This document shows, one piece after another, positions 10,747 through 37,557 of a DNA stretch of 64,000 bases; position 1 is the first letter of the stretch, and every line of letters begins with the position of its first letter. The stretch is from a bacterium (GTDB lineage Bacteria > Patescibacteriota > Minisyncoccia > Minisyncoccales > GWA2-46-15). The notes below the pieces were generated by a model. It did not search any database and was not told the origin of the DNA. It saw only the letters and a program-made list of their open reading frames with translations. The translations under genes and the position numbers were made by a program. The DNA is taken from contig JAUYAM010000002.1 of assembly GCA_030693425.1 (NCBI GenBank), positions 384,632 through 448,631 on the forward strand, read 5' to 3'.

Positions 10747-10750
10747 CCCC

Positions 10751-18562: not shown

Positions 18563-18586
18563 AAAAAAATCGCCTTTCTGGCGATC
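18563..18586 (-). terminator. Junction module copy 1 (CGCC-AGAAA-GGCG hairpin + T-run)
   Basis: Minus strand GATCGCCAGAAAGGCGATTTTTTTGA; family also at 20313-20355, 24066-24131, 28151-28214, 37512-37557. Confidence 0.6.
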
Positions 18587-18609
18587 TTGATAACTAAAAA
18601 CGCTGGTTT

Positions 18610-19227
18610 TTACAGTTTTATTTGACCGATCGCTTTTTTGAAAAACTCTTCCATTTTCGCCTTGCCGATTTTCTCTCCCAAAAAGATAATCTCCGTGTCT
18701 TTGATATCTTTCAAATAAACCAGCTGTTCCAAAAACAATCTTGGCTCGAATTCTCTTCCATACTTTTTTTGACAGATATCAATTAACTTCGGCAATGTTA
18801 AATGTTTTCCCTTTAGGATAAAATAGAGGTCAACATAGTCTTTCTTCGTTGCTCTTCTTCCTAAAACGTATGCTTTGATAGCAGCGATCTCTTGCACAGA
18901 AAACAATTTTACGCCGTTATGCTCTTTCAGTTTGAAAATGATAGGAAAGGAATATTTGACAAAAGTTAAGTGAATACCGTTAAGAACCGCCGTCAACTGC
19001 TCCGGGTTGTTAACTATAATTTCCCTTTTATAATCTTTAAACGCTTTCTCTACTTCTTGAAGTAATCCTGGCGGTATTTTCTTATCGGAAAAAAAATCAA
19101 AATCTATTGAAAGGCGATGGCCAATTTGCAAAGCCAAAGCAGTGCCACCGGCAAGACAATATTCAGGAAAGTTCTTTAATCTCTCAAAGATTCTTTTTTG
19201 CTCTGATGTAATCGCTTCGAGATGCAT
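18610..19227 (-). CDS. Nucleotidyltransferase AbiEii/AbiGii-like toxin family protein
   Basis: GGTALALQIGHRLSIDFDFF motif typical of the family. Confidence 0.7.
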   Translation of the reverse strand: MHLEAITSEQKRIFERLKNFPEYCLAGGTALALQIGHRLSIDFDFFSDKKIPPGLLQEVEKAFKDYKREIIVNNPEQLTAVLNGIHLTFVKYSFPIIFKLKEHNGVKLFSVQEIAAIKAYVLGRRATKKDYVDLYFILKGKHLTLPKLIDICQKKYGREFEPRLFLEQLVYLKDIKDTEIIFLGEKIGKAKMEEFFKKAIGQIKL

Positions 19228-19504
19228 ATCTTAACTTATTAATTTTCAAAAGCAATTTTATCAATTTTAAAACCCGCGGCATAAAAGCGCTTTCGGGAAT
19301 CTCTTGGACAATTTCTTTAACCGTCTCCTTGCCATAATGCCTAACTAACCATTGCCAATGGCGCCAGCCGCCGTAATTAACAACCTGCAAAATAATCTCT
19401 TTTTTGTATTCCTCGAGGTCAATGACGCCGGGGTCCTGAATCCACCAAAAAAAGCGGCGAAAATCGGGTAAAGGTTTATTTTGTTCTGAAAATACCTTAG
19501 TCAT
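19184..19504 (-). CDS. Small protein overlapping the AbiEii-like gene by 44 nt (candidate cognate antitoxin)
   Basis: Position and overlap only; no motif recognised. Confidence 0.4.
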   Translation of the reverse strand: MTKVFSEQNKPLPDFRRFFWWIQDPGVIDLEEYKKEIILQVVNYGGWRHWQWLVRHYGKETVKEIVQEIPESAFMPRVLKLIKLLLKINKLRYASRSDYIRAKKNL

Positions 19505-19580
19505 ATTTATATTTTAACATAAAATTAGCGAAACGACAACTTCAAAACCGCTGCTCTGGCGGCTTTTGAACGCACTTCCC

Positions 19581-20315
19581 TCAAGTTATTTCAATCTCTC
19601 TGAAAACTGTTTTCATAGAAACGTTCTCCCTCGGGGCAGAAATATCTTTCTGGGGAATCAAGAATACTTTCCTGATTAAATTAACAATTTGGTGGATATC
19701 TTCAAGTTTTTGCTCCAACTCCAGACCTTTCGCAGAAAAGTTCACAGGCAGGTTTAAGTCAACGGGAATATCTTTGTCAATGTGTATTTTCTTGTTCGGG
19801 TCTATATTCAGCATGTCTTTTAAAGGAATTTCCATATCTATCTTGAAATTATCATCAATGGGAATATCCAAGCTGACCGGCACTTTTACAGATACGGGGA
19901 TATCCATATCCAAGGAAAAAGGAACTTCAATCGGATAAATGCCGTAAAAAGGAACATTTATGTTTACAGTAACTTTTTGGTCCCCTTTTACGGGAACTTT
20001 GGTATTTACCTCAAATTCTTTTTCAATATGAAAGGTTTTGTTTATAGGAACATACTGATCTATTTTAACCGTCTGGGGCAGAATTTCATTCAAATCAATA
20101 ATGTCTTTTAAAAACATATCCAGTTTAATGGGTATGATTTGGTTAATAGCAATGTTTGCTGAAATTCCGGGGTCAATTAAAGAAGATATTTGTTTGTCTA
20201 TTGAGTCGCAAATAAAAGAAACCTGGCGCCTGACATAGAAAAATCCGCCTCCTATTACCAATAGAACCACTATGCCAATAATAACGGATAATAATGACAG
20301 TGATTTTAAGTTCAT
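19581..20315 (-). CDS. N-terminally anchored repeat protein (DIPV/PV-rich), intact paralog
   Basis: One TM then repeated ..VPV..DIPV.. units; close paralog at 30056-30691. Confidence 0.65.
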   Translation of the reverse strand: MNLKSLSLLSVIIGIVVLLVIGGGFFYVRRQVSFICDSIDKQISSLIDPGISANIAINQIIPIKLDMFLKDIIDLNEILPQTVKIDQYVPINKTFHIEKEFEVNTKVPVKGDQKVTVNINVPFYGIYPIEVPFSLDMDIPVSVKVPVSLDIPIDDNFKIDMEIPLKDMLNIDPNKKIHIDKDIPVDLNLPVNFSAKGLELEQKLEDIHQIVNLIRKVFLIPQKDISAPRENVSMKTVFREIEIT

Positions 20316-20355
20316 ATAGATTATTCTATCAAAAACTCGTTTTTCCGGCGACTTT
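20313..20355 (-). promoter_or_regulatory. Junction module copy 2 (degenerate) with leaderless -10
   Basis: Minus strand GAAAGTCGCCGGAAAAACGAGTTTTTGATAGAATAATCTAT-ATG. Confidence 0.5.
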
Positions 20356-20439
20356 CAATCATAGGCGTTTGTGCTAGGCTAAGCCTCGCACAACATACAT
20401 ACATACCATCTATCATCCAATTTTTACAATACCATATTT

Positions 20440-20483
20440 AAAAATAAAGAGGCCTCTCGGGAACCGAAATTCCTAAGAGGCCT
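20440..20483 (-). terminator. Intrinsic terminator after the 182-aa ORF
   Basis: Stem AGGCCTCT/AGAGGCCT (20476-20483 / 20450-20457) followed by CTTTATTTTT on the minus strand. Confidence 0.65.
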
Positions 20484-20501
20484 ACGATCGAGAGGGTCAA
20501 A

Positions 20502-21050
20502 CTACTTGCGCTGACGCACCAGCCGGCCACGGGAATCCCAGTCGCACCCAAGCAAGAAGAAGTTCAGATCACACATCCCGCCGCGCCAACAGAGGTAAGG
20601 CACGTAGAGGTTGTCATCTGGGTGGCGCCAAACCGTTCCGGCAAAGATGAGACAGAACTTCTGCCATTCTGCCGGAATCTCATTGTGATGTTCCAACAGA
20701 TACTCGGCATGACGCTGGCCGAGATTAGCGCCAAGCTCTTTGGCACGCCTGCGTACCTCCTCGCTGGAGATATACTTCTCGTTCTTTCCCAGAAAAGAGA
20801 CGAGTTCCAAGTTGGCGATGGCAATAGGCCAAGGCAATTGTGCATTCTCGATGACATCCCATCCACTCTTGGCCAGATCGCGAGAGAAAGCAGGAGTGCC
20901 ACCGAAACAACCCTCGATAGCCTTTTGTAGATGGAGCTTAAGCTCCTCCGGGTCGAATGGATAACCATTCGGTTGCCGGAGCTGACGCTTAATCTCCAAC
21001 AGTTGGCCATCTAATCCATAATACTGACCGCCTGTGACAATTGTTGCCAT
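20502..21050 (-). CDS. Hypothetical protein, compositionally foreign (GC-rich, strong SD)
   Basis: Visibly GC-richer than its AT-rich flanks; GGAAGGAGG Shine-Dalgarno, unlike neighbouring leaderless genes. Confidence 0.65.
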   Translation of the reverse strand: MATIVTGGQYYGLDGQLLEIKRQLRQPNGYPFDPEELKLHLQKAIEGCFGGTPAFSRDLAKSGWDVIENAQLPWPIAIANLELVSFLGKNEKYISSEEVRRRAKELGANLGQRHAEYLLEHHNEIPAEWQKFCLIFAGTVWRHPDDNLYVPYLCWRGGMCDLNFFLLGCDWDSRGRLVRQRK

Positions 21051-21215
21051 GACGATCCTCCTTCCGTTCTTGCTGGCTTTAAAATTTAAGAGGTTTCCTC
21101 ACCAGCAAATACTATTTATAATAGACACTAAAATATTAAATCTGTCAATAGTAATATTAATATAGAACAACCGAGGCCTCTCGGTTTCTTGCATTTCAAG
21201 ACACGGAAGTGGCTC

Positions 21216-21260
21216 ATAAAAAATGTTGACTGCGGGCTGACTCGGTCTAGAACCTGCCCC
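21216..21260 (-). repeat. tRNA-trailer-like motif copy R6 with tRNA-3'-half-like extension
   Basis: Minus strand GGTTCTAGACCGAGTCAGCCCGCAGTCAACATTTTTTAT. Confidence 0.8.
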
Positions 21261-21271
21261 AATGTCTGTCG

Positions 21272-21288
21272 TTGACGACTGTCGTCAA
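21272..21288. repeat. Palindrome TTGACGACTGTCGTCAA (copy 2), inside a 35-nt insertion (21265-21299)
   Basis: The insertion is absent from the paralogous sequence at 29964-30020. Confidence 0.8.
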
Positions 21289-21395
21289 TTGTTATTATAG
21301 CGTATTTTAAGAGGTTTTTGGGCCTTGGCCAGTGTCTCGTTTGAGGTGTCTCGGTCCTCCTCCGCCAAGGCTTCGGAAGGATAAATCGGGGCGTT

Positions 21396-21441
21396 TATTC
21401 GAGAAATGAGTCACGGAAAAAGGTATTTTAGCGTGTCTCAT
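21396..21441 (-). repeat. ATGAGACAC hairpin family, copy A1 (overlaps mltG stop codon)
   Basis: Minus strand ATGAGACAC-N18-GTGACTCAT. Confidence 0.7.
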
Positions 21442-22400: not shown

Positions 22401-22437
22401 GAAGAAATTAATCTGTTTTTCTTGATTTTAGCGCAAA

Positions 22438-22482
22438 ATGAGACAAATGAGACACGGAAGCGGGGTTTTGGTAGTGTCTCAT
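22438..22482 (-). repeat. ATGAGACAC hairpin family, copy A2
   Basis: Minus strand ATGAGACAC-N18-GTGTCTCAT-TTGTCTCATTTTGCGCTAAAAT. Confidence 0.8.
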
Positions 22483-22484
22483 TA

Positions 22485-23684: not shown

Positions 23685-24068
23685 TTAACCTTCTAAAACC
23701 GACTTTAGCTTCTCCAAGATTGCGATTTCAAATGGTTCTTCAATTTCCCCCTTATCAACCCATTCATAGTATTCAAGCTCTGTTATTGCATCATCTATTG
23801 TCTTATACGTATACCTTGCGTGATAGTTTCCATCTCTTGATGTCAATTCAAACATTTCGTTTTCCTTAAAACCAGTCATAACACATTCTGACCATTTACC
23901 GCTTCTGTTTTGATTTCTGTAAATAGTCCCCACTTTAACCGGCCACTCATTAGTTTCCTCCTTAACAAAAGAGTCTATCCAGAGCGGAGTATTGGCTGGA
24001 TTAAGCGGAAAGGCGAATGCTTCTTGAATCGGTTTTTTGATTTGAATAGCAAGCTTGTTCTCTTTCAT
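23685..24068 (-). CDS. SRPBCC/START-like small protein
   Basis: About 127 aa; pattern of a helix-grip fold family; weak. Confidence 0.4.
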
Positions 24069-24131
24069 ATTTATTCACTTTATCAAAAAAGCCTGCCTAC
24101 CGGTAGGCAGGCGCCTTTCTGGCGACTTTTT
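24066..24131 (-). terminator. Junction module copy 3: GCCTGCC palindrome terminator + leaderless -10
   Basis: Minus strand AAAGTCGCCAGAAAGGCGC-CTGCCTACCGGTAGGCAGGC-TTTTTTGATAAAGTGAATAAAT-ATG; 11-bp perfect stem at 24091-24112. Confidence 0.7.
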
Positions 24132-24223
24132 AAAATCAATACATCTCGGTCTCTCACGTTTCGAGGCGCCGAAAGCGACTCATAGCGAGTAGAATACTTG
24201 ATATGTCGGGTGTTCCGCCCGCT

Positions 24224-24315
24224 ATAAAAAACGCTGATGGCGCCATGTACCACGTGGGGTACACGGCAGCCATGAACCCTACGTGGTTCATGGCGGGCTG
24301 ACTCGGTCTAGAACC
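24224..24315 (-). repeat. tRNA-trailer-like motif copy R5, split by a 51-nt double-hairpin insertion
   Basis: GGTTCTAGACCGAGTCAGCCCG (24315-24294), insertion 24243-24293 (stem CCATGAACC/GGTTCATGG), then CCATCAGCGTTTTTTAT. Confidence 0.7.
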
Positions 24316-27300
24316 GATTCTCAGATAGATATTCTTTCCATTCTCGGATTTTTTCGACAAGTCTTAAAGCGAAGGTGGAGACATTTGACGTCAAACTCTT
24401 TATCGCCTTAAATTCGCTCTCGCCACTAGCTGGCGGAGGGGCTACCGGTAACGGAAGTGGAGGCGGCAGAAAGCCGGTTCTTTGTTCGTCGTGATGTATA
24501 GTGGGCCAGAACATCGTGTCGGGATTGTACGCAGCAGACAAATCCCAAACATACAAAGAACCTCTTATCTTTATGTCATTTTTTACGGTGTCAAAATCCC
24601 AGTCGGAACTGGCAATCAACTCCACTTTCTTATCTTTGTCAACGTCGGCAATGGTCGCTGACGCCTCGGCCCATTCCTCAATCCCTAAAGGAGTGCCTCT
24701 CATCAATTGAAAATCCGTATCGCGCCAGGCGTATAAACCTCCCCCGCCACCAGAAAACCATTCTCCGGCTGTAGCCAAAATATCCGATTTTCCGTTCCCG
24801 CTGACGTCACCCATGATTGTCGAACGCCAATTGCCAAAAGAAGTTGCCTGGGGCGAACCGGAAAAAAGCTTACCGTCGTGATGAAAAAGATATGTCATAT
24901 ATTTACTTTCCCCGTGCTCGTAACGGCTGATGCCGATTTCCAAGTCGTTGTCGCCGTCAAGGTCTCCAAGAGAAGGCGAACCAATGAAATTAAATCCCTT
25001 CATTTGCGGCCAGCCAGGCAAAAGGTTCCCGGTTTTGTCAAAGACATAGACTCCGCCAGAATCCGGAGATTCATCATAATAACCCCGCGCCGAAGCAATC
25101 ACTATCTCGCTTAAGCCGTCCCCGTTTAAATCGCTGACTGACGGGCCAGAGTTTATTATGAGGCCGTGGATAGTAACGGGCCAGCCCGACAGCAAGGTGC
25201 CGTCTCGGTTAAATATCCTGATCTCGCTATTGTTGAGACTATTTTTAGGATCAGCTACTACTATTTCCAAATCCGGGTCATCGTCAAAATTCCCCACTGC
25301 CGGACCCGGTCCGCCGACATAGTCATAATAATTCTTATCCGGCAAAAGCCACTGAGCGATAATCTTTCCATTGTAATCAAGTACTGTCATTTTTCTCCCG
25401 CGCCCTTCATCGGGCTTAATAACTATTTCTTGCAGGCCATCGCCATTTAAATCAGCTGTTAGCATATAAAATCTGCTGACTCTGGACATTGCCAAGGATA
25501 TGGGTTGCTGCAATGGTTGACCATTAGATCCAAGAATATAAAGCCAAGGAGAATCATATTCTCCATTATTCACAAGAATAACAATTTCCTTCGCGCCGTC
25601 GTTATTAATATCTCCTATAAGAGGGTTCTCCGCTGTAAAGCCCCCACTAGCGCCCACAACGCTGAATCCGAATGACCAAAGAAGAGCTCCGTCGTACTTA
25701 TAGACATATATCTTGGGCGGATTTCCGTTTTTTAGAACTACTATTTCCTGGAAACCGTCGCCGTTAATGTCGCTGACCGCCGGTTCCAAAAAACCTCCCC
25801 AGTAATAACAATTACCCCCGCACTGTTCTTCTGGCACTTCCTCCCAGTTCACTCTTTTAGGCCAGCCTTTTTTCAACATTTTATCTAAGTAAACTCGTAA
25901 CACTTCCTCTTCGGCACCGCCGCTATAACTCAAAACAGCCTTGAGGGAATATCCGCCGGTCGGCAAACTCGTGGTATTCCAAACTTGGCCCGCAATCCGA
26001 GTCCAGACGGAAGCACCCGGCTTTAAATAGCTCCAGGATAAAGAATAGGCTTCGCTGAGATACACTTGTGCCTTAAGCTTAATTGAATCCCCGCTCCTTA
26101 TCACATCGGAACTGAGAGGAAAGAGAATATCCCACTTATTAACCTCAAAATAGCCGTAATCAAGGAAACTTTGGCCAGATTTGTCTTTGGCCGCCAGTTT
26201 TAAAATATATTTTCCGTCGGGAATTAAGTTAAGATTAAGCACATAGGATATCTTGAAATTAGGGGGAATCGGCGCGGTTGCCAAAACAATGAATTTTGAC
26301 GGATCGTAAGGGACAAGAGGAGCGTAGGAAATAGTGTAATTTTGAAGGTTTCCACCCTTGGCAAGGCCGCTGATGTTAATCGTGCCCCTCTTTTTGGTGG
26401 AAATAGGATTCAGTTTGACAATCGGCGGATATTTAGATTGAACCGCCTTTAGAACGTCGATTCTGCCCAGTCCTTGTTCGACGGGATGCAACAAAATATC
26501 TAAAGCAGTATTTCTCAAGGCATATTTTATATACAAAGGTTTCCAGGTAGGATGTTTCTGTTTTATCAGAGCCGCGGCGCCGGCAACGTGCGGAGTGGCC
26601 ATTGAAGTGCCGCTGATGGCAATATGTTTAGAATCCAGGCACTCTGCTTCTGGCAACCAGTCGTCCCACTGGGCAGCGCAGATATCAACTCCGGGCGCGA
26701 CAATATCTGGCTTCATAATAGATTTATTTTCCCAAAATACCGGCCCTTGAGAACTAAAATAAGAGGTGCCGTCTTGCTTGTCTGCGGCGCCGACAGTAAT
26801 GGCTTGCTTGGCTGTGCCAGGAGAACCAATAGTCGCAAAACCGCCGCTATTGCCCGCTGCCACGGCTGCTACTACTCCGGCGCCTACTGCATTGTCCACT
26901 GCCCGGGAAAGAGGATCATCAGGATTTCCTTCGGAAGCGCCCAAGCTAAGATTAATGACGTCTAAATGGTCTGACAAATTTCCGTCTTGATTCGGGTCCA
27001 TTGCCATTTCTATGCCCGCAATAACCCAGTCAAAATAGCCCGAGCCAAACTCGTCAAGAACTTTGTAAGCGTAAAGATTGGCGTCAGGCGCCACTCCTTT
27101 TAAGGCGCCTTTGCCAGCGGCAATGGCAGCCACGTGAGTGCCGTGCCCCATGTCGTCCATGGGATCTGCGTCATTATTGACAAAGTCATAGCCGCCAAGA
27201 ACCTTGCATCTTGCCCCCAAGCAGCCCCCCAATTCCCTGTTGGCATAGTCAACGCCGGTGTCAATGATGCCGATTGTTACCCCTTGGCCAGTGATTGAAC

Positions 27301-28054
27301 GCCCTTGTTGGTCTTTAAGTTTCCAAACCTTGTCAGCTTTGATCAAGGGCACGGAATCATATAAAAAAGCTTTGACTTTGTAGTTGGGGGAAACCTTATA
27401 ACCCTTGTTTTCTATTTTTTTTACCTCTTCGCCTGAAAGCTGGTCAACGCTCACGCCGTTGATGGCAACAGCAAATTTGTTCTTGACGCTGGCTTTGGGC
27501 GCCAAGAACTTAATCACGGACTCTGCCTGAATCTGCTCTTTTTTAATGAGGGCTGACTGGACAGAAAGCAAAGCTCTGGTGTTTTTGTCTTCCGATCCGA
27601 TGATATCGTTTATCTGCTTTTGCAAGGACTCCTTTTCTTTTTCAGTGACAGCTCTGTCCAAAGACTCTTCAAGGGAAAAAGTTTTCAGCCCTACGGCCTC
27701 TTCCCGCTCTGCCTTGACGGCTGCCAAGGGCTTTTCCTTAAACTCAATGATGTAACCCTTAAATTCCTCTACTTGTATTTCATATTTTTCCGACAGGTCT
27801 TTGGACAAAAACAACTCGTCGCCCAAAACCATGTCTGGCTGGCCATAACCCAGTAATGTTTTTTGGCCGTCAGGGCCTTTTAAAAAGATCCGCGATACTT
27901 CTTCTTGACTAACGCCAGAAGAAGCAGCCTCGTCTTGACTCAAGGCAAAAAATTCTTTGCCGTCTCTGATAAACCCGGAAGCCGACGGAACAAAACCGGA
28001 AAGCAAGAGGAAAACCAGGGAGGCAAAAGCAATAGACTTTTTGAGGTTTGTCAT
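24308..28054 (-). CDS. Giant secreted subtilase (S8) fused to FG-GAP/VCBS-type beta-propeller repeats
   Basis: Signal peptide; catalytic IIDTGVDY / HGTHVAAIAAG / GTSMATPHVAGAAAL; at least 8 repeats of D.NGDG..EIV type. Confidence 0.9.
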   Translation of the reverse strand: MTNLKKSIAFASLVFLLLSGFVPSASGFIRDGKEFFALSQDEAASSGVSQEEVSRIFLKGPDGQKTLLGYGQPDMVLGDELFLSKDLSEKYEIQVEEFKGYIIEFKEKPLAAVKAEREEAVGLKTFSLEESLDRAVTEKEKESLQKQINDIIGSEDKNTRALLSVQSALIKKEQIQAESVIKFLAPKASVKNKFAVAINGVSVDQLSGEEVKKIENKGYKVSPNYKVKAFLYDSVPLIKADKVWKLKDQQGRSITGQGVTIGIIDTGVDYANRELGGCLGARCKVLGGYDFVNNDADPMDDMGHGTHVAAIAAGKGALKGVAPDANLYAYKVLDEFGSGYFDWVIAGIEMAMDPNQDGNLSDHLDVINLSLGASEGNPDDPLSRAVDNAVGAGVVAAVAAGNSGGFATIGSPGTAKQAITVGAADKQDGTSYFSSQGPVFWENKSIMKPDIVAPGVDICAAQWDDWLPEAECLDSKHIAISGTSMATPHVAGAAALIKQKHPTWKPLYIKYALRNTALDILLHPVEQGLGRIDVLKAVQSKYPPIVKLNPISTKKRGTINISGLAKGGNLQNYTISYAPLVPYDPSKFIVLATAPIPPNFKISYVLNLNLIPDGKYILKLAAKDKSGQSFLDYGYFEVNKWDILFPLSSDVIRSGDSIKLKAQVYLSEAYSLSWSYLKPGASVWTRIAGQVWNTTSLPTGGYSLKAVLSYSGGAEEEVLRVYLDKMLKKGWPKRVNWEEVPEEQCGGNCYYWGGFLEPAVSDINGDGFQEIVVLKNGNPPKIYVYKYDGALLWSFGFSVVGASGGFTAENPLIGDINNDGAKEIVILVNNGEYDSPWLYILGSNGQPLQQPISLAMSRVSRFYMLTADLNGDGLQEIVIKPDEGRGRKMTVLDYNGKIIAQWLLPDKNYYDYVGGPGPAVGNFDDDPDLEIVVADPKNSLNNSEIRIFNRDGTLLSGWPVTIHGLIINSGPSVSDLNGDGLSEIVIASARGYYDESPDSGGVYVFDKTGNLLPGWPQMKGFNFIGSPSLGDLDGDNDLEIGISRYEHGESKYMTYLFHHDGKLFSGSPQATSFGNWRSTIMGDVSGNGKSDILATAGEWFSGGGGGLYAWRDTDFQLMRGTPLGIEEWAEASATIADVDKDKKVELIASSDWDFDTVKNDIKIRGSLYVWDLSAAYNPDTMFWPTIHHDEQRTGFLPPPLPLPVAPPPASGESEFKAIKSLTSNVSTFALRLVEKIREWKEYLSENRF

Positions 28055-28150: not shown

Positions 28151-28214
28151 AAAAAAGCCTGCCTACCGCCTGCCTGCCGGCAGGCAGGGTAGGCAGGCGC
28201 CTTTCTGGCGACTT
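28151..28214 (-). terminator. Junction module copy 4 with expanded GCCTGCC palindrome
   Basis: About 21-bp stem at 28157-28198 (GCCTGCCTACCGCCTGCCTGCC/GGCAGGCAGG-GTAGGCAGGC), flanked by GCGCCTTTCTGGCGAC and a T-run on the minus strand. Confidence 0.7.
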
Positions 28215-28325
28215 TAGAAACTTTTTCATCTCTCGATCCTTCAATAAATTCAGGTCTTCGGCTCAGGCTCGAAGAGATGGTGAACCATTCGGCCCCGAGC
28301 TCATGGCCGAGGGGCTCGCCGAACC

Positions 28326-28367
28326 ATAAAAAATGTTGGCTGCGGTGCGTATTTGAAAAAATCCGAA
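28326..28367 (-). repeat. tRNA-trailer-like motif copy R4 fused to TTTTCAAATACGCACCGC box
   Basis: Minus strand TTCGGATTTTTTCAAATACGCACCGCAGCCAACATTTTTTAT; the box recurs at 32496-32520 and 35131-35152. Confidence 0.75.
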
Positions 28368-29963: not shown

Positions 29964-30009
29964 TGGGCTGGCTCGACTCAAAGCCTGCCCCAATGGCGTA
30001 TTTTAAAGG
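29964..30009 (-). repeat. Degenerate relative of the R6 tRNA-3'-half-like sequence
   Basis: Minus strand CCCTTTAAAATACGCCATTGGGGCAGGCTTTGAGTCGAGCCAGCCC aligns with 21233-21316 except for the 35-nt insertion. Confidence 0.6.
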
Positions 30010-30055
30010 GTTTTTCGCCTTTTTAGTTAAGCAACTAATATCCCGAAGCAGAAAT

Positions 30056-30691
30056 TTATTTTTGAGGGATTAAAAATATCTTCCTGACCAAATTAACGAT
30101 GCGTTGGATATCTCCAAGTTTTTGCTCCAACCCCAGACCTTTGGCAGAAAAATTCACCGGCACGCTTAAGTCAACAGGAATGTCTTTGTCAATGCGTATT
30201 TTTTTGTCCGGGTCTATATTGAGCATGTCTTTTAAGGGAATTTCCATATCTACCTTAAAATTGTCGTTGATAGGAATATCCAAGCTGACCGGCACTTTTA
30301 CAGATACGGGGATATCCATATCCAAGGAAAAAGGAACTTCAATCGGATAAATGCCGTAAAAAGGAACATTTATGTTTACAGTAACTTTTTGATCCCCTTT
30401 TACGGGAACTCTGGTATTTACCTCAAATTCTTTTTCAATGTGGAAAGTTTTATTTATGGGGACATACTGGTCTATTTTGACTGTCTGGGGCAGAATTTCA
30501 TTCAAATCAATGATGTCTTTCAAAAACATATCCAGCTTAATGGGCATGGTTTGGTTTATGGCAATGTTGGCTGAAATCCCGGGGTCAATCAAAGAGGATA
30601 TTTGCTTATCCATTGAGTCGCAGATAAGAGAAACTTGGCGCCTGACATAGAAAAATCCGCCTCCTATCGCCAGCAAAACAACTGCGGCCAT
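30056..30691 (-). pseudogene. Decaying paralog of 19581-20315 (start codon ATG>ATA, premature TAA)
   Basis: Nucleotide alignment by eye: ATAAACTCAAAATCA vs ATGAACTTAAAATCA at the 5' end. AAATAAATTTCTGC vs AAAGATATTTCTGC at the 3' end. A 211-aa ORF from an internal Met remains. Confidence 0.55.
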
Positions 30692-31623: not shown

Positions 31624-31717
31624 AATTTTAGTTCGATTAATTTATTAATATTATTCTAACAATTCTTCAATTGAAACGCCGAGAGCTTTGATAATTTTGA
31701 GGTAAGTCGGTCTCTCG

Positions 31718-31762
31718 ATAAAAAATGCTGACTGCGGGGATAATCTCCGGTACTTTGAACCG
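31718..31762 (-). repeat. tRNA-trailer-like motif copy R3 with T-arm-like hairpin
   Basis: Minus strand CGGTTCAAAGTACCGGAGATTATCCCCGCAGTCAGCATTTTTTAT. Confidence 0.8.
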
Positions 31763-32483: not shown

Positions 32484-32495
32484 ACATATTTTGGG

Positions 32496-32870
32496 GCGGT
32501 GTGTATTTGAAAATATCCGAACCGAACTGGCTGGGCCCCGCCTGCGTTGACTCGGCCTTCGTAGCCACTCTCGCCTCGCCAGAGCCTTCGGCGGAGCGCG
32601 GGTCGGCGAAGGAGGCAACTTCGGCGGGCAGGTCGGCGGGCGGCCCCGCAACTATCTCGCTTCGCTCGAAGTGCGGGGTAAAAATTCCCCCTAGCCCCCT
32701 GGAGTTTACCCCGCATAATCCCGAAGGGATTTGTGCGGGACCCGCCTCGCCTTGCCTGCCCGACCGAAGCAGTGCGTAGGCGGGAAGCGGAAGCGGAAAG
32801 AACGATTTCAAGTTTTTCGTTCCGCTTTTAGCGGAACTCCGAGCTTTGCTCGGTTTGGCGGCAAATTTCC
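32496..32870 (-). ncRNA. GC-rich hairpin-dense island Y (candidate structured RNA; function unknown)
   Basis: Visibly GC-rich vs flanks. 11-bp perfect stem 32672-32682/32705-32715; hairpins ATCCC-GAA-GGGAT, CCGAGC-TTT-GCTCGG, CCGC-TTTTA-GCGG; several CCCCGC/GCGGGG segments. Strand assignment tentative. Confidence 0.3.
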
Positions 32871-32875
32871 TATCT

Positions 32876-33007
32876 TTTATCTGCTATTAAAATAACAAAT
32901 TTACAATTTAATGTATATGGAGGATTTGCTGCTTCAAAATCCTCTATAACTTCTGATTCATACATTTGTGCTTGATAATTTCGAAAAAGGTTTTTTAGAA
33001 CCCTTTT
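32876..33007 (-). repeat. Perfect 132-bp duplicate of the methyltransferase gene 3' end (copy without the rest of the gene)
   Basis: Identical by eye to 35313-35444. Confidence 0.9.
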
Positions 33008-33010
33008 GTG

Positions 33011-33032
33011 GACGGGGGACGTTTCACTTTTA
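33011..33032. repeat. REP-like element, orientation a (GACGGGGGACGTTTCACTTTT)
   Basis: Reverse complement matches AAAAG(A/T)GAAACGTCCCC at 33738-33790. Confidence 0.75.
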
Positions 33033-33041
33033 AACAGAGTT

Positions 33042-33692
33042 TTAGTCATTTTTAATGTGTTGGCTTAATTTCCTTTCTATCTTTCTTTTCTCCATATATT
33101 TTTGACTATTGCTTCCCCATATCTCCTCACTATATGTTTTTTTAATTATCTGAGAGATAGTTAGTTTTTGATAGTTTATCTGCCTTTCTTTCTTGTCTTT
33201 TCCTAATCCTTGATAAAAGGAATCATCTGTTAAAAGTTCGTTTTCTTTTCCTTGGGCATAATAACCATAGCTTGAATAAGGATATTCTTGAGGTTTTTTT
33301 GTGATATTGGCTCTTACTGGATTTAATTCAATATATTTTCCACATTGAATAAAATATTCATCTTTTCCTACTGGCTTGTTTTTAAATCTGTTTTGCCAAA
33401 AGTGTCCTGTCCAGCCATACTTTTTCCTAAAATAATGATAATAGGAAAGATTTAGTTTTTTCATTAAAACAGAAAAATCTGTAGATTTATTGGTTTGGAT
33501 TAGAAGATGGACGTGATTTGGCATTAAACAATAATGATAAAGATCAAAAGGATGTTCTTTTTTATATTTTTTAATCAAGTTTAGAAAATACAAATAATCT
33601 TCTTTTTCTCTAAAGATTACATTTTTATTGTTTCCTCTTGTTATTATATGATAGCAAGATTGAAATAAAAGAAAACGAGGTAGCCTTGGCAT
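33042..33692 (-). CDS. REP-associated tyrosine transposase (RAYT; IS200/Y1 transposase-like)
   Basis: CYHIITRGNN...; HUH motif MPNHVHLLI; about 216 aa; flanked by inverted REP-like sequences. Confidence 0.85.
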   Translation of the reverse strand: MPRLPRFLLFQSCYHIITRGNNKNVIFREKEDYLYFLNLIKKYKKEHPFDLYHYCLMPNHVHLLIQTNKSTDFSVLMKKLNLSYYHYFRKKYGWTGHFWQNRFKNKPVGKDEYFIQCGKYIELNPVRANITKKPQEYPYSSYGYYAQGKENELLTDDSFYQGLGKDKKERQINYQKLTISQIIKKTYSEEIWGSNSQKYMEKRKIERKLSQHIKND

Positions 33693-33737
33693 TGTTTAAT
33701 TCTAACATGGATTAACTAAAATGACTAACTTCTTATT

Positions 33738-33802
33738 CAAAAGAGAAACGTCCCCTTTTAACGCCAAAAGAGAAACGTCCCCTTTTAACGTCCCCTTTTA
33801 AC
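33738..33802. repeat. Tandem REP-like repeats, orientation b (2.5 x about 26 nt)
   Basis: CAAAAGAGAAACGTCCCCTTTTAACG twice, then TCCCCTTTTAAC. Confidence 0.85.
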
Positions 33803-33870
33803 TTTTAACCTTCGGGTGAGGGGTTGACCATGGAGAATAGATTAAATATTTGATGAGTCTCGGCCTCTCG

Positions 33871-33889
33871 ATAAAAAATGCTGACTATG
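33871..33889 (-). repeat. tRNA-trailer-like motif copy R2 (5' part diverged)
   Basis: Minus strand CATAGTCAGCATTTTTTATCGAGAGGCCGA. Confidence 0.7.
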
Positions 33890-33924
33890 AAACGTACAAA
33901 TTGCTACGCAATTTTACGTTCCAG

Positions 33925-33973: not shown

Positions 33974-34025
33974 CGGAGAACTATTTACAGTGTTATAACC
34001 TATTTTACGTTGAGAACTGTGTGTA

Positions 34026-35090: not shown

Positions 35091-35130
35091 GCCATTAAAT
35101 CATACCATATTATAGAATAGCGATCAAAGT

Positions 35131-35305
35131 GTGGTGTGCGTTCGAAAAAATCTTTACCCTGTACTTCTACTTCGGGGGACGATTTTCCACCTTCACTAAA
35201 GTTTCGGCGGACAGGCAAGTCTTTCCCTGCCCCGTACCGAATTCATTCTGGTGCGGGGTTTGCTTTGCCCTCCGTAGTTTTTACAAAGGATGGGGCGGCA
35301 AATTC
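35131..35305 (-). ncRNA. GC-rich island X, shorter relative of island Y (candidate structured RNA)
   Basis: Shares both ends with Y (GTGTG..TTCGAAAAAATC and GGCGGCAAATT). 9-bp stem CCCCGTACC/GGTGCGGGG; contains REP-like CGGGGGACGATTTTCCAC. Confidence 0.3.
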
Positions 35306-35306
35306 T

Positions 35307-35987
35307 TTATTCTTTATCTGCTATTAAAATAACAAATTTACAATTTAATGTATATGGAGGATTTGCTGCTTCAAAATCCTCTATAACTTCTGATTCATAC
35401 ATTTGTGCTTGATAATTTCGAAAAAGGTTTTTTAGAACCCTTTTTGCATCATTTAAAGTATAAAGGGGTTCTTTGCCAAATATAATTAATTTTCCATTTA
35501 GAGAAGTTCTTTTTATGTCTGTTGCAAAATCAATTATTACTCTTCCGTTTGGTTTAAGAATCCTATCAATTTCAAAAATTATTTGTCGTAAAACTTCTTT
35601 TGGAAAAAGATGTAAGGTACCCGTGCAAAAAATGCCATCAAATAGACCGTCTTCGAATGGAAATTTCTTGGTCATATCGAAAGCTTTCGTATTTAATTTT
35701 TTCCTATATTCCTTTGGAGTATTGTGCCACAATTTACTAAGGGCACTTTCATCAATATCGGTAACGACAACAAAATCGGCTTTTTTTAATAGATTCAAAT
35801 TATAGCGACCATCGCCAGCGGCGAGATTTAACCATTTGCCATGAATTTCAATCTTCCCCAAGAGTTCCATGGTATCTTTATCGCCAGTTCCCCAAATTGA
35901 AGTTTTAGCCGTTTCAAAATAATTAACTCCTTCGGTAAAGATATACTTATCTTCTTTTGGCTTATGGGGTCTTATTATTTTTTCCAT
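35307..35987 (-). CDS. Class I SAM-dependent methyltransferase
   Basis: Motif I WLNLAAGDGRY; post-I VVTDID. Confidence 0.8.
   Translation of the reverse strand: MEKIIRPHKPKEDKYIFTEGVNYFETAKTSIWGTGDKDTMELLGKIEIHGKWLNLAAGDGRYNLNLLKKADFVVVTDIDESALSKLWHNTPKEYRKKLNTKAFDMTKKFPFEDGLFDGIFCTGTLHLFPKEVLRQIIFEIDRILKPNGRVIIDFATDIKRTSLNGKLIIFGKEPLYTLNDAKRVLKNLFRNYQAQMYESEVIEDFEAANPPYTLNCKFVILIADKE
35313..35444 (-). repeat. 132-bp segment (3' end of the methyltransferase CDS) duplicated perfectly at 32876-33007
   Basis: Direct repeats bracket the RAYT/beta-propeller segment. Confidence 0.9.
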
Positions 35988-36009
35988 AAAGGTTTTTTAC
36001 AGAGGTTTT

Positions 36010-36063
36010 TACAGAGGTCAGACCTCTGTAAATTTTCAATTGTGGGAGGTCGGACCTCCCACA
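36010..36063. repeat. Two adjacent perfect hairpins sharing a GAGGTC-N-GACCTC core
   Basis: TACAGAGGTCAGACCTCTGTA (36010-36030) and TGTGGGAGGTCGGACCTCCCACA (36041-36063). Confidence 0.8.
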
Positions 36064-36086
36064 TTTTTATCTCGGTCGGGACTATT

Positions 36087-36132
36087 TTAAGCAAAAATGA
36101 GACAAATGAGACACAGAAACAGGATTTTTGGT
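36087..36132 (-). repeat. ATGAGACAC hairpin family, copy A3
   Basis: Minus strand ATGAGACAT-N18-GTGTCTCAT-TTGTCTCATTTTTGCTTAAAAT; close match to A2. Confidence 0.8.
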
Positions 36133-36186
36133 AATGTCTCATCATCTCGAAACAAGTTGCGCCGTGCTAAACCTCACATATATGGT

Positions 36187-36987
36187 TTAGCCCTCAATCA
36201 ATAAAGCCATTACCTTCTTCAAAACCTTTTTGAATTTTAAGGTATGCATCCAACGAGTAGGCGGTACGCCTACTAAAAGTATTGTGTTCGTATAATTAGC
36301 GAATAATTTTCCTTGCAAGGCCCTTTTTAAATTATATGGCCTATTGTCCTTCTCCAATAGCCCGTTGTACGCATCTTTCTGGAACGCGATAATACTTCCT
36401 TTTTGTTTGATAAATCGTTCTATGACTTTTCGCACCCGTTGTCTCTCTGCGCTGGCTAATTGGTCAAATGCTTTTTTGCCGAACAAACGCCGCAGCCCCA
36501 TGACCCCTGACCATTTTGGATCGCTGGCAGGACTAGGAAACGTAAAAAATACTTCCATCCCCACAACAAAAAGAGAGTCGTATTTTAGATTGAAAAAATT
36601 AGATTTGAATAAATCATTATCATCGCCTCCCCGTGGAGATATATTAATAATTCCAAGTTCCCTCATGACTTTCCAGAACCGATGTTCTCTGCCATTTCCC
36701 TCGAAAGCAAAATATATATCGGCCAATACGCTATGAGGAGCGGGATTGCCGAATAAAAATAAGATTTTGGGTTTATGGTCAGATAATTTTGGAATCCACG
36801 ATTTGTGCAAATAAACCAGTTTGTCTTGTTTCCTTTCTATAACTTTTCCCAAAAAGCGATCTGCCTTAAAAAACTCGTTATAACGATTCCAGAATTTCTT
36901 CAAGTCATCTTTTTGGTATATCTGCGACAAATCAATCTCGCATACAAATTGCCCCCTAGAAGTGTTTTTATAACGAAAAAAGTTCAT
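36187..36987 (-). CDS. Hypothetical protein, uracil-DNA-glycosylase-superfamily-like (weak)
   Basis: LFLFGNPAPHS (motif A-like) and FTFPSPAS (HPSP-like motif B with F for H). Confidence 0.35.
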   Translation of the reverse strand: MNFFRYKNTSRGQFVCEIDLSQIYQKDDLKKFWNRYNEFFKADRFLGKVIERKQDKLVYLHKSWIPKLSDHKPKILFLFGNPAPHSVLADIYFAFEGNGREHRFWKVMRELGIINISPRGGDDNDLFKSNFFNLKYDSLFVVGMEVFFTFPSPASDPKWSGVMGLRRLFGKKAFDQLASAERQRVRKVIERFIKQKGSIIAFQKDAYNGLLEKDNRPYNLKRALQGKLFANYTNTILLVGVPPTRWMHTLKFKKVLKKVMALLIEG

Positions 36988-37034
36988 GAAAAAATCTCAT
37001 CTAGATCGATTTTAAACTTTTCTGAAGACAGCTC

Positions 37035-37514
37035 TCAGAAAGTTTTTATTCCTTCCATTCTCTCGCCCAGCGTTCTATCGGGAATATATACCAGCGCATC
37101 CACGCCTTTGATTTCGATCATTTCGTAATCCTTTTTAAGTATTAACGTAAAATTACCGCTACTCCGCAAGTATTTTTCTTTAAACTGCTGGTAATCCTTG
37201 ATTTTAAAATCCGGGGCGCCCCTTTGCGGCCTCGTTGCGTCTGGTTTCCTGATTTTTATCAGCGATAAAATTCCCGCTGGCGTTTTTATCGGTTCCTTCA
37301 ATAGAAATGTTCTGCCTGTCCTAATAGTCTCTTTATCCACTTCCTCGCCTATGCTCTCAGCGGCAAGCTCCAAATCCTTGTACTCGTTTTCGTCTTTGGA
37401 AAAGATTGCGACGTAATCAATAACCGCTTCCTTTTCATCGGTATTGTTCTTAATAGCAGACAAACCCTGTTCAACTAAATAACACACAATTTTTTCTAAT
37501 TCGCTTTTGTTCAT
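37035..37514 (-). CDS. Hypothetical protein
   Basis: 159-aa ORF directly behind junction module copy 5; no motif recognised. Confidence 0.5.
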   Translation of the reverse strand: MNKSELEKIVCYLVEQGLSAIKNNTDEKEAVIDYVAIFSKDENEYKDLELAAESIGEEVDKETIRTGRTFLLKEPIKTPAGILSLIKIRKPDATRPQRGAPDFKIKDYQQFKEKYLRSSGNFTLILKKDYEMIEIKGVDALVYIPDRTLGERMEGIKTF

Positions 37515-37557
37515 ATATTCATTTTATCAAAAAAGCGCCTTTCTGGCGACTTTAAAA
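37512..37557 (-). promoter_or_regulatory. Junction module copy 5 (terminator hairpin + extended -10, leaderless)
   Basis: Minus strand AAAGTCGCCAGAAAGGCGCTTTTTTGATAAAATGAATAT-ATG. Confidence 0.65.

Follow-up and report, generated by a model that had tools for sequence, protein, structure and literature searches.

Repeated block at gene junctions

A short repeated block stands at gene junctions of the window, i.e., the whole 64-kb stretch of DNA that was analysed. It is lineage-specific and, judging from its sequence, most likely combines a terminator with a leaderless promoter. The repeat itself is real. Its core, the 19-mer AAAGTCGCCAGAAAGGCGC, occurs exactly three times (24111-24129, 28197-28215, and 37535-37553, all on the minus strand) and is accompanied by one close variant and one degenerate copy, and these minus-strand copies range over 18.5-37.6 kb. 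A 16-mer search allowing up to three mismatches returned six matches against 0.45 expected, a number reached in 0 of 100 shuffles. A profile of the core plus T-run found four copies with E<1e-5 (37556, 18591, 28219, and 24132) and a marginal one (20357, E=0.03), with no match beyond these five over the 64 kb and all of them on the gene strand. The preliminary description had placed a uniform junction of about 45 nt, reaching to the ATG, before five genes. Five copies were indeed found, but their preservation is unequal, since the copy at 18570 is a variant and the one at 20337 has lost its hairpin. The full junction through to the ATG is present in only two copies and, in degenerate form, at 20315, and not before the genes starting at 28054 and 18516. 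The 3' half of the module, TTTTTTGATAAARTGAATA, occurs only twice (24072-24090 and 37516-37534); at 20315, the corresponding stretch is a related TTTTTGATAGAAT-N7-ATG. The conserved unit is not the whole ~45-nt module but only the core and T-run to about TTTTTTGAT, and the -10 boxes and starts vary. This block, A(A)AGTCGCC-AGAAA-GGCGC-T5-6-G, is about 25 nt long with sharp edges, and 45-65 nt long where a GCCTGCC-type palindrome is inserted.

In junction copy C (37512-37553, minus strand), the core (37535-37553) is followed by the T-run (37529-37534) and by TGATAAAAT (37521-37529), 6 nt from the ATG (37512-37514) of a 159-aa ORF without a family match; here, TCGCCA-17-TAAAAT scored as a promoter. 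A degenerate tandem core, which the preliminary description lacked, lies 63 nt upstream (37598-37616, minus strand; AAATTCGCCAGTAATTCGC, then GTTTGTCTGATACG), with four mismatches and the hairpin lost. Junction copy A (24066-24129, minus strand) includes the core (24111-24129), the 22-nt palindrome GCCTGCCTACCGGTAGGCAGGC (24091-24112), the T-run (24085-24090), and the promoter TGATAAAGT (24077-24085), 8 nt from the ATG (24066-24068) of a 127-aa ORF, downstream of which come an aminotransferase and then YceG. Copy B (28151-28215, minus strand) combines the core (28197-28215) with an expanded palindrome of about 42 nt (28157-28198) and a T-run (28151-28156). Unrelated sequence separates this T-run, which starts 102 nt ahead of the ATG (28054), from the gene, and therefore there is no leaderless junction at copy B; the gene behind it encodes a 1248-aa S8 peptidase with FG-GAP repeats. 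The variant copy (18563-18588, minus strand) consists of AAGATCGCCAGAAAGGCGA (18570-18588) and T7, and a C-to-A change makes its T.C mismatch a T-A pair, which gives a 6-bp perfect stem. It is 46 nt away from the ATG at 18516, and a separate promoter, TGCTATAAT-N6-ATG (18523-18531), lies 32 nt past its T-run before the CARDB gene (16825-18516). The degenerate copy AAAGTCGCCGGAAAAACGAG (20313-20355, minus strand) has the core AAAGTCGCCGGAAAAACGA (20337-20355), in which the hairpin is lost, T5, and TGATAGAAT (20323-20331), 7 nt from the ATG (20313-20315) of a 244-aa ORF; copy 5578 in the related locus L030 shares a homologous upstream flank with it. A diverged core-like hairpin, AAAAGCCGCCAGAGCAGCGGTTTTGA (19545-19570, minus strand), also absent from the earlier description, precedes the DUF6922/AbiEii genes with TGTTAAAAT-N6-ATG at 19504; in the related locus L035, this gene pair has a near-canonical core ahead of it.

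Variable island next to tRNA-Ser(GGA)

Every module copy in the window falls within a variable island of 22.5 kb (~16826-39339, minus strand), which lies immediately 3' of its anchor, tRNA-Ser(GGA) (39340-39425, minus strand). The island genes encode two S8 peptidases, a methyltransferase, a RAYT-type transposase, a HAD hydrolase, a Hint-domain protein, an AbiEii toxin pair, a CARDB protein, an aminotransferase, YceG, and several products without a family match. The related locus L049 is collinear with the window to 39340 and then again from 16206; the island is missing there, and the orthologous neighbour gene comes 23 nt after the tRNA. No integrase or recombinase for the junctions was found in the island, and no integrase adjoins it.

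The block is restricted to one small clade of the Parcubacteria type (CPR), and among its members the flanks are reassorted. The upstream family CGAGAGACCGAGAGG is joined to the aminotransferase in L003, to the 127-aa gene in the window, and to a flavin reductase in L035. The aminotransferase is preceded by one flank in L003 and by another in L030, the flank GCGAGGCTTAGCC... has two different downstream genes (L030, window 20355), and the downstream promoter GATTTGCGCTCTTGACA has two different upstream flanks (L030, L021). Moreover, an AAA_14/DUF4143 gene in L030 is bracketed by 45-nt perfect direct copies. Junction identity between genomes was 91-94% and that of the adjacent aminotransferase DNA 84%; this cross-genome conservation is partly a retrieval effect because the related loci were collected by an exact 18-mer search. 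The palindrome variant is genome-specific, which is consistent with homogenisation within a genome. In 18 kb of core genome from a close relative, the block occurs only once. The earlier association of the module with accessory genes was borne out, in that the block marks the boundaries of accessory genes rearranged between relatives.

We hypothesize, with somewhat better than even confidence, that the block is a lineage-restricted cassette-junction repeat in which an insulating terminator would be fused to a leaderless promoter. It would stand at the 5' edge of gene cassettes within the tRNA-linked island, and cassettes recombining at these junctions would spread the block and keep it uniform. 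The -10 box and start codon would be brought by each downstream gene, and the shared unit would be only the hairpin with its T-run. Integron cassette arrays (attC) and tRNA-linked islands with att repeats are similar in having unrelated accessory genes in one direction with short structured repeats between them, a fixed chromosomal anchor (the tRNA 3' end), and content that varies among relatives. Unlike integrons, the island has neither RYYYAAC/GTTRRRY cores nor IntI or another integrase, and integron cassettes are mostly promoterless, whereas the cassettes here carry their own predicted promoters.

A second junction repeat, D5 (consensus CCGCAGTCAACATTTTTTATCG), occurs at 21215-21235 (minus strand), 28325-28345, 31717-31737, 33870-33890, and 37766-37786, with a degenerate copy at ~24222-24240 and a copy in the tRNA-Ser flank at ~39318-39339. 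Its sequence is similar to the final bases of tRNA-Ser together with the 3' flank. The block often comes after D5, and in most cases the core forms the distal end of a longer mosaic with the order pseudo-tRNA 3' end, CAACATTTTTTATCG repeat, CGAGAGACCGAGAGG motif, and core. It is possible, at clearly lower probability than cassette spreading, that the modules are att-type scars, left as passive by-products of serial integration by tRNA-Ser-targeting elements that copy the tRNA 3' end together with the terminator of its flank. D5 aligns with the tRNA-Ser 3' flank in three genomes, the island abuts the tRNA exactly, and the order of D5 and then core is kept at junctions A, B, and C. In L018, tRNA-Ser(CGA) is directly followed by CAA(G/C)ACAATTTTTTATCG and then the core. 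In addition, several D5 copies have GGTTC...CCGCA remnants reminiscent of a T-arm and acceptor stem, and one such remnant (24291-24321) includes CCA. However, the pseudo-tRNA fragment was not called as a tRNA by ARAGORN and its loop, TTCTAGA, is atypical; the tRNA-Ser(GGA) flank of the window is itself without the core; and no integrase lies in the island or at its borders. In the copies at 18588 and 20355 and in those of L021 and L030, the 5' edge is sharp and lies at AAAG, and the sequence ahead of it is unrelated and contains no D5. The scar explanation overlaps with the cassette-junction one, and the two are not mutually exclusive.

Hairpin stability and termination

The terminator-like anatomy seen earlier holds, as a GC hairpin stands directly against the T-run in every intact copy, formed by the core stem or, where present, by the inserted palindrome. 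Hairpin and U-tract would form an intrinsic terminator that shields the downstream gene from read-through. The bare core stem has only four G-C pairs, and at copy C it folds at -8.4 kcal/mol (z=-1.95; 12 of 200 shuffles fold equally well or better), and the bare core is predicted to be a weak terminator. The palindrome-bearing copies fold at -22 and -47 kcal/mol, the latter value being that of copy B (z=-6.2). The 18570 variant folds at -12 kcal/mol (z=-3.7) and the 19545-19570 homologue, in which T.C is changed to C-G, at -10.9 kcal/mol (z=-2.8), and the changes in both keep the hairpin structure; the 20337-20355 copy folds at -3.5 kcal/mol (z=+0.1). Both palindromes are as first described, that of copy A being perfect, but they do not represent an internal duplication of the module, as they belong to a separate GCCTGCC-type repeat that is also found inside other intergenic repeats of relatives.

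On the other hand, the suggestion that the hairpin is the main terminator of the upstream gene did not hold. The gene at 37803-39146 is already served by a much stronger terminator with a stem of 17 bp (37671-37708), ~130 nt upstream of the copy C hairpin, and a stronger terminator likewise lies upstream of the second L030 copy, while the L003 copy has no co-directional gene upstream to terminate. With its A-run, GC-rich stem, and immediate T-run, the block is like intrinsic (Rho-independent) terminators, including the bidirectional A-tract/hairpin/T-tract types, and another GC palindrome can take the place of its stem or strengthen it with the layout unchanged. Ordinary terminators, however, are not conserved base for base across unrelated loci or genomes, as the block is, and the block usually lies downstream of a stronger terminator, directly on a promoter. 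A plain terminator fails to account for such conservation of the AGAAA loop, the T.C mismatch, and the AAAG lead; to explain it, the block must have spread recently or undergone gene conversion, or else have a partner that recognises its sequence.

Promoter geometry and leaderless starts

As had been proposed, the T-run leads directly into an extended -10 box close to the ATG (6-8 nt away in three copies of the window and in six of relatives), and no Shine-Dalgarno site is present at the junctions. In nine distinct copies from the window and relatives, the start of the T-run precedes the ATG by 20-22 nt, and the junction ends in TGnTAnnnT-N6-8-ATG; the distance is 20 nt in six core-bearing copies, 21-22 nt in two more, and again 20 nt at the diverged core-like hairpin near 19563. 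The genes behind these junctions are unrelated (159-aa, 127-aa, 244-aa, and 78-aa ORFs, aminotransferase, APH kinase, and flavin reductase). Transcripts would begin with the start codon or right beside it, so the mRNA would be leaderless. The promoter type is not, as assumed before, a property of the module, because TGnTAnnnT at 5-9 nt from the ATG is general both in the window (8 of 15 cases, P=1.7e-5) and in relatives (11 of 27 cases, P=2e-5), and it appears to be genuine for the organism. Shine-Dalgarno-like motifs were at background (6 of 57 genes vs 9.6%).

Extended -10 promoters drive leaderless mRNAs in Actinobacteria, Deinococcus-Thermus, and archaea. The junctions share with them TGn-TAnnnT at 6-8 nt from the ATG, the lack of a Shine-Dalgarno site, and a predicted transcription start at the A of the ATG. 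They differ in that the host is of the Parcubacteria-type CPR and that a hairpin element, with its T-tract, supplies the sequence before TG. The literature searched yielded no account of leaderless or Shine-Dalgarno-independent initiation in this lineage.

Alternatively, the 19-mer could be an operator or protein-binding site (dyad AAAGTCGCC / GGCGCTTTT around AGAAA) through which one regulator controls several island genes, with the hairpin incidental. The conservation including loop and mismatch, which exceeds what a terminator requires, fits this, as does the presence of the block in L003, where nothing needs terminating; in palindrome-free copies, the dyad centre is ~28 nt before the ATG, fixed relative to the -10 box, and TCGCCA is at the -35 position with 17-nt spacing. 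Nevertheless, an operator is unlikely, as palindrome insertions of 20 and 40 nt displace the site from the promoter in four copies, yet it is intact, the copies at 18588 and 28215 do not adjoin the promoter, and in diverged copies it is the pairing that is kept and not the sequence. The downstream genes are also functionally unrelated, and no candidate regulator was identified.

Comparison with mobile and extragenic repeats

Slightly less probable still is that the core and palindrome are REP- or MITE-like mobile hairpins moved as ssDNA by an HUH (Y1) transposase, such as the product of the island RAYT-type gene (33042-33692; NF047646, 80.4 bits vs a cutoff of 80). The units are sharply bounded, GTAG occurs within the palindrome, GCCTGCC palindromes are inserted in several different repeats of relatives, and the D5-CGAG junction has received further small GC-rich hairpins. 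However, the inverted repeat on either side of the RAYT-type gene is a different one, GGGGACGTTTC... (33015-33052 and 33718-33755), copies are few (five in the 64 kb, every one of them within the island, and a single one in the 18 kb of the relative), all copies are oriented like the downstream gene, and there are neither target-site duplications nor terminal inverted repeats beyond A/T runs. Like enterobacterial REP and BIME, the block is a short extragenic palindrome in variable mosaics at gene ends, sometimes terminator-like, with a RAYT-type gene nearby; unlike them, it has few copies, is confined to the island, and lacks the 5' GTAG-plus-stem architecture.

It is very improbable that the block terminates a small non-coding RNA gene of the upstream intergenic region. 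In favour of this reading are a TGATATGAT box ~125 nt upstream of the T-run in the divergent intergenic region of L003 and the ~60 nt upstream of the core that L003 and copy B have in common. Against it are the upstream sequence, which is completely different between most copies, the unremarkable structure of the L003 segment (z=-1.35), and Rfam matches that were only spurious and sub-threshold. The cassette-junction repeat can finally be compared with the Correia repeat-enclosed elements of Neisseria, which are interspersed in the genome as small sources of promoters and terminators. These are MITEs of 100-155 bp with 26-bp terminal inverted repeats, TA duplications, and hundreds of copies, features of which none was seen in the block. 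Common to both is a short repeated intergenic element with terminator and promoter activity, in the block a predicted one, on the adjoining gene.

Copies of the Repeat in the Window

The window has three exact occurrences of the 16-mer GTCGCCAGAAAGGCGC (24111-24126, 28197-28212, and 37535-37550), each on the minus strand, and one with two mismatches (18570-18585). With up to three mismatches, six matches were found against 0.45 expected, and none of the shuffles reached six. Extended by its AAA lead, the 16-mer gives a 19-mer (AAAGTCGCCAGAAAGGCGC) that is identical in all three exact copies. A profile of the core and its T-run, built from 12 copies, recovered the sites at 37556, 18591, 28219, and 24132 with E < 1e-5 and the site at 20357 marginally (E = 0.03), all on the gene strand, and matched nowhere else in the 64 kb. 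The shuffles and the exact identities of 19-45 nt rule out chance or a generic consensus as the source of the repeat. The preliminary description proposed one 45-nt module in front of five genes, and all five sites were indeed recovered by the profile. However, they are not five copies of one module, since TTTTTTGATAAARTGAATA is present only twice in the window (24072-24090 and 37516-37534), the copy before the gene start at 20315 is hairpin-less, and those before 28054 and 18516 have no direct junction. At 20315, the core is degenerate and the hairpin is lost (-3.5 kcal/mol, z = +0.1), and the arrangement T5-GATAGAAT-N7-ATG is kept. At 28054, the start of the T-run lies 102 nt from the ATG, and at 18516 the block is followed by unrelated sequence and then by a separate TGCTATAAT-N6-ATG promoter. 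Both palindromes were found as first described, one of 22 nt and perfect (24091-24112), the other of about 42 nt (28157-28198). Two further relatives of the block are a decayed tandem copy at 37598-37616 and a diverged hairpin, AAAAGCCGCCAGAGCAGCGGTTTTGA, at about 19545-19570.

Anatomy of the Block and Its Relation to Termination

In an alignment of 15 distinct copies from the window and from the related contigs L003, L018, L021, L030, and L035, the common unit runs from a sharp start at A(A)AG to T5-6-G(A/G). The palindrome-free copies contain a 4-bp CGCC/GGCG stem with an AGAAA loop, which directly abuts the T-run; the four G-C pairs and an A-U extension give the bare core a folding energy of -8.4 kcal/mol. 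In the palindrome-bearing copies, it is the palindrome itself that abuts the T-run, with energies from -21 to -47 kcal/mol. A GC-rich stem-loop with a loop of 3-8 nt followed by at least five T, as in an intrinsic terminator, is found in the copies at 37553, 24129, 28215, and 18588; in the copy at 20355 the stem is lost and this anatomy is therefore missing. The hairpin and T-run are, by prediction, terminator anatomy. Pairing is kept or improved in two diverged copies: at 18570-18588 a T.C mismatch has become T-A within a 6-bp stem of -12 kcal/mol, and in the hairpin at about 19545-19570, which precedes the DUF6922/AbiEii pair, it has become C-G (-10.9 kcal/mol). Although each is a single event, these changes favour a structural role of the block. 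In L035, a near-canonical core precedes the DUF6922/AbiEii pair as well.

The hairpin was initially regarded as the terminator of the upstream gene. The predicted anatomy agrees with a terminator, but in most cases not with that of the upstream gene. The S8 peptidase gene upstream of the copy at 37553 is already followed by a 17-bp terminator (37671-37708) ahead of the block, in L030 a CCCCTCGG...CGGGG-TTTT hairpin belonging to the AAA_14 gene precedes the block by about 60 nt, and in L003 and L055-L058 the block lies in a divergent intergenic region where there is no co-directional upstream gene to terminate. The block is placed like a 5' edge of the downstream unit rather than a 3' end of the upstream one. 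Its predicted function resembles that of an intrinsic terminator joined to a leaderless promoter of the extended -10 type. A known RNA family or small RNA was rejected on the basis that no Rfam match reached threshold and that the upstream segment in L003 is not significantly structured. In the Rfam 15 scan only tRNAs reached the gathering score, the copy at 28215 matching STnc400 with 31.9 bits vs. a gathering score of 80.

Promoter Geometry and Translation Initiation

The first T of the T-run lies 20 nt from the ATG in six core-bearing copies and 21-22 nt in two others, and the diverged core-like hairpin near 19563 likewise shows 20 nt. The run shares its final T with the extended -10 element TGnTAnnnT, and 6-8 nt separate the hexamer from the ATG. 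Unrelated genes follow the copies (159-aa, 127-aa, 244-aa, and 78-aa ORFs, an aminotransferase, an APH-type kinase, and a flavin reductase), and the -10 boxes vary between TAAAAT, TAAAGT, TAGAAT, TAAGAT, TAGGAT, and TAGCAT. A leaderless promoter, with 5-9 nt between hexamer and ATG and no Shine-Dalgarno (SD) sequence, is predicted at 37514, 24068, and 20315, where the spacing is 6, 8, and 7 nt, respectively. The leaderless-type junction suggested earlier for all five genes is supported for these three, in which the T-run passes into the extended -10, but it fails at 28054, and the promoter at 18516 is separate from the block.

This geometry is not peculiar to the module, and leaderless-type promoters had also been noted elsewhere in the window. 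A survey of ATG-start genes in the window (n = 57) and in ten related loci (n = 130) gave 15 and 27 TGnTAnnnT boxes, respectively, within 60 nt upstream, of which 8 (P = 1.7e-5) and 11 (P = 2e-5) had a distance to the ATG of 5-9 nt. Six genes of the window (10.5%) and 17 of the related loci (13%) have an SD-like tetramer between -18 and -4, and the background of such tetramers in the window is 9.6%, so that upstream SD-like motifs occur at background frequency. In a looser scan, the distance to the start of the long ORF downstream was 6-8 nt for 9 of 23 extended -10 boxes. From the peak of boxes 6-9 nt from the ATG and the background level of SD motifs, both in the window and in the related loci L030, L035, and L044-L055, the organism in general appears to use SD-independent and frequently leaderless initiation. 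In this Parcubacteria-type clade, translation would then start largely without SD, with about half of the extended -10 boxes upstream of genes at a spacing that predicts leaderless mRNAs. The literature searched contained no relevant account of leaderless or SD-less initiation, or of such repeats, in CPR bacteria. A classic GGAGG SD, present in few genes of the window, precedes the ORF at 20502-21050 (182 aa, no family match), which was described at first as GC-rich; the ORF also has a long leader and a TTGACA-type promoter region and may be a recent foreign acquisition.

Island at tRNA-Ser

The window encodes, among others, rpoD, dnaG, groEL, uvrA, uvrC, RNase J, DUF5671, CARDB, and PG_binding proteins, the closest homologues of which are annotated as Patescibacteria, Parcubacteria, Nealsonbacteria, or Staskawiczbacteria. 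It belongs to a 453-kb MAG contig, and its genes between 4 and 47 kb are on the minus strand. A tRNA-Ser(GGA) at 39340-39425 was identified by ARAGORN and by an E-value scan of a sub-region (52.8 bits); the Rfam gathering-threshold scan of the whole window missed it. The related locus L049, whose M48 peptidase is 83% identical to that of the window, is collinear through SBP_bac_5, uvrA, groEL, LemA, M48, and DUF5671 up to the last base of the tRNA-Ser (window 39340). In L049 the neighbouring 202-aa gene follows 23 nt past the tRNA, and collinearity is resumed at window position 16206, with His_Phos_1. It follows that the window carries a 22.5-kb island (about 16826-39339) at the 3' end of the tRNA, which is absent from the collinear locus of the relative, and every copy of the module is inside it. 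The island encodes two S8 peptidases, a methyltransferase, a RAYT-type Y1 transposase, a HAD hydrolase, a Hint-domain protein, the DUF6922/AbiEii pair, a CARDB protein, an aminotransferase, YceG, and several ORFs without a family match. Between 16.8 and 39.3 kb no integrase was found, and the distal edge (about 16826) lacks a copy of the tRNA-Ser 3' end; internally, there are pseudo-tRNA fragments and copies of D5, a second junction repeat. From the definition of an integrative island, only the location at a tRNA applies. Phage or plasmid origin was rejected, as viral contigs contain no match to the core or to D5, and the nine unknown island ORFs have no PHROG family.

A second segment, at about 7077-15669, is not collinear with L049 either. 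In the window it contains DHH, a 385-aa ORF, UbiA, NIF3, Ppx, and others, whereas in L049 His_Phos_1 and dnaG are separated by a PhdYeFM antitoxin pair only; in another relative (L054), the 385-aa ORF is located between M48 and tRNA-Ser. At 2319-3992 (L049 16229-17979), a large serine recombinase of 537 aa with Resolvase, Recombinase, and Zn_ribbon_recom domains adjoins tRNA-Asn(GTT), its end overlapping the tRNA, and the arrangement is kept in L049. It may represent a separate integrated element.

Distribution and Flank Reassortment

An exact 18-mer of the block had 13 matches among 185,579 species genomes. Twelve of these were in GC-rich sequence of unrelated phyla without flank similarity, and by estimate their number looks like that expected by chance. 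The only true copy was in the Patescibacteria MAG JAHJMO01, which rules out a widespread element. In metagenomes, 12 of the 29 loci with the exact 18-mer were true copies, all on CPR contigs. No copy was found within ±10 kb in relatives with an aminotransferase of at most 84% identity, and a close relative has one copy in 18 kb of mostly core genes. The element is low-copy, confined to one clade, and tied to variable DNA. In the closest MAGs (L003, L055-L058), the gene divergent from the module encodes a 257-aa protein with a faint LAGLIDADG_3 match beside tRNA-Ser(GCT), and restriction-modification genes come next in L055. Here, upstream of the aminotransferase, the module seems to lie in a further variable neighbourhood, possibly associated with a homing endonuclease.

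Left and right flanks of the block occur in free combination across genomes. The upstream motif CGAGAGACCGAGAGG is joined to the aminotransferase in L003, to the 127-aa gene in the window (24129), and to flavin reductase in L035, and the downstream aminotransferase in turn follows either CGAGAGACCGAGAGG (L003) or an unrelated flank (L030). Similarly, the upstream flank GCGAGGCTTAGCCTGGCACAAA... precedes the AAA_14 gene in L030 or the 244-aa gene in the window (20355), and the TTGACA-type promoter region of the AAA_14 gene lies downstream of this flank in L030 or of another one in L021 (position 527). In L030, the AAA_14/DUF4143 gene is placed between 45-nt perfect direct copies of core, palindrome, and T6G; no AAA_14 homologue is present in the window, where the 127-aa ORF is found instead between the block and the aminotransferase. 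Window and L030 share 91-94% identity at the junction vs. 84% in the adjacent aminotransferase DNA, and the palindrome variant is genome-specific, the window having a CCGG centre, and L030 and L035 an ACCGAC loop. Together, these features indicate recombination at or within the block and within-genome homogenisation of its copies, as judged from sequence comparison, and both homologous and site-specific modes would fit.

Mosaic Junctions and Comparison with Known Systems

The island contains six to seven copies of the D5 repeat (consensus CCGCAGTCAACATTTTTTATCG), which aligns with the last bases of tRNA-Ser and its 3' flank in three genomes. Some D5 copies are preceded by a pseudo-tRNA 3' end, GGTTCTAGACCGAGTCAGCCCGC, at 21234-21264, 24295-24325, and 29965-29995 in the window and at about 3297-3319 in L018. 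It resembles a tRNA T-arm and acceptor 3' strand, often with AAAACCTCTTAAAATACGC before it, and ARAGORN called no tRNA at these copies; the one at 24291-24321 has a subsequent CCA and extends over the stop codon of the gene for the 1248-aa peptidase. The order of pseudo-tRNA/D5, CGAGAG motif, and core is found at the window junctions at 24129 and 28215, immediately after tRNA-Ser(CGA) in L018, and in L035; at 37553, D5 and core are present in this order and the CGAGAG motif is missing. Comparing the copy at 28215 with a junction of L021 (L021b) shows that the junctions contain inserted small GC-rich hairpins. The palindromes had been interpreted as an internal duplication of the module, but in L030 GCCTGCC-type palindromes lie within another repeat, and in L035 they stand by themselves; they thus represent an independent repeat.

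The block resembles REP/BIME and Correia-type repeats and cassette-array junctions in its distribution and mosaic nature, but it fails the defining features of REP/RAYT, attC, MITE, and Rfam families. A MITE of the Correia type was rejected, as the 15-copy alignment shows only A-run/T-run symmetry and no duplicated flanks. The same applies to integron attC sites, for which the junction sequences examined contain no RYYYAAC/GTTRRRY cores and no IntI was found; no tyrosine recombinase was found among the window proteins scanned. A REP/RAYT link would imply abundant REPs with 5' GT[AG]G flanking their own transposase. The Y1 transposase at 33042-33692 (minus strand, 216 aa) matches the NCBIfam REP-associated tyrosine transposase with 80.4 bits vs. 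a cutoff of 80, and has 38-nt inverted repeats on both sides (33015-33052 and 33718-33755). However, these are of the GGGGACGTTTC... type and not the core or palindrome, and the block has only five copies in 64 kb. Upstream of the gene, AAAGGGGACGTTTC is present as two exact tandem copies and one copy with two mismatches; elsewhere in the window, the repeat has a single 2-mismatch match (54055-54068). We rate the block as an interspersed junction repeat with predicted terminator and promoter function.

The mosaic order of pseudo-tRNA/D5, CGAGAG motif where present, and core suggests that the junctions may descend from att-like tRNA-flank sequence multiplied by serial insertions, a reading made less certain by the lack of an integrase and by the copies that carry the bare block only. 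It is also conceivable, but in our opinion unlikely, that the mosaic junctions are recombination sites of a tRNA-Ser-anchored, integron-like cassette-capture platform in this Parcubacteria lineage, from which cassettes gain an insulating terminator and a leaderless promoter, with the 19-mer as crossover or recognition site. Such a platform would lack an integrase in cis. Its junctions would be composed of the pseudo-tRNA 3' end and the CAACATTTTTTATCG repeat together with the conserved hairpin/T-run block, and each cassette would arrive with, or be inserted behind, the insulating terminator fused to the leaderless promoter. A crossover at the 19-mer would explain both its base-for-base conservation and the flank reassortment. 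Since almost all CPR/Patescibacteria are uncultured, with poorly described expression signals and routes of gene acquisition, a compact and sharply bounded element that marks the boundaries of accessory-gene exchange in a tRNA-linked island is of interest under either outcome. If the block is a recombination site beyond being a terminator, it would offer small genomes a new route for gene capture with immediate expression. If it is a terminator only, it would be a well-documented case of extreme compaction of intergenic signals, which could help CPR genome annotation and the design of expression cassettes for the few tractable members.

Additional Repeats

The 244-aa (19581-20315) and 211-aa (30056-30691) ORFs of the island are partial paralogues, sharing a 300-nt direct repeat (19636-19935 and 30048-30347, 88% identical). 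A 151-nt repeat at 32857-33007 and 35294-35444 (97% identical), with no Rfam match, has related copies in L030 (8800-8960 and 10350-10500); it starts with GAATTTGCCGCC, followed by GC-rich hairpins and then GAAAAACTTG...GGAAAATCGTCC, and in L030 this family carries a GCCTGCC-type palindrome in the hairpin position. Outside the island, DNA-level tandem repeats of about 300 nt at 51648-53824 lie inside the 1395-aa ORF at 50826-55013 and indicate a putative repetitive surface-type protein. Finally, a 45-nt repeat (GAGACA...TGTCTCATTTGTCTCATTTT) is present at 22425-22469 and 36084-36128, ahead of yceG and the methyltransferase gene; it includes GAGACA/TGTCTC as an inverted pair and is a possible regulatory site.
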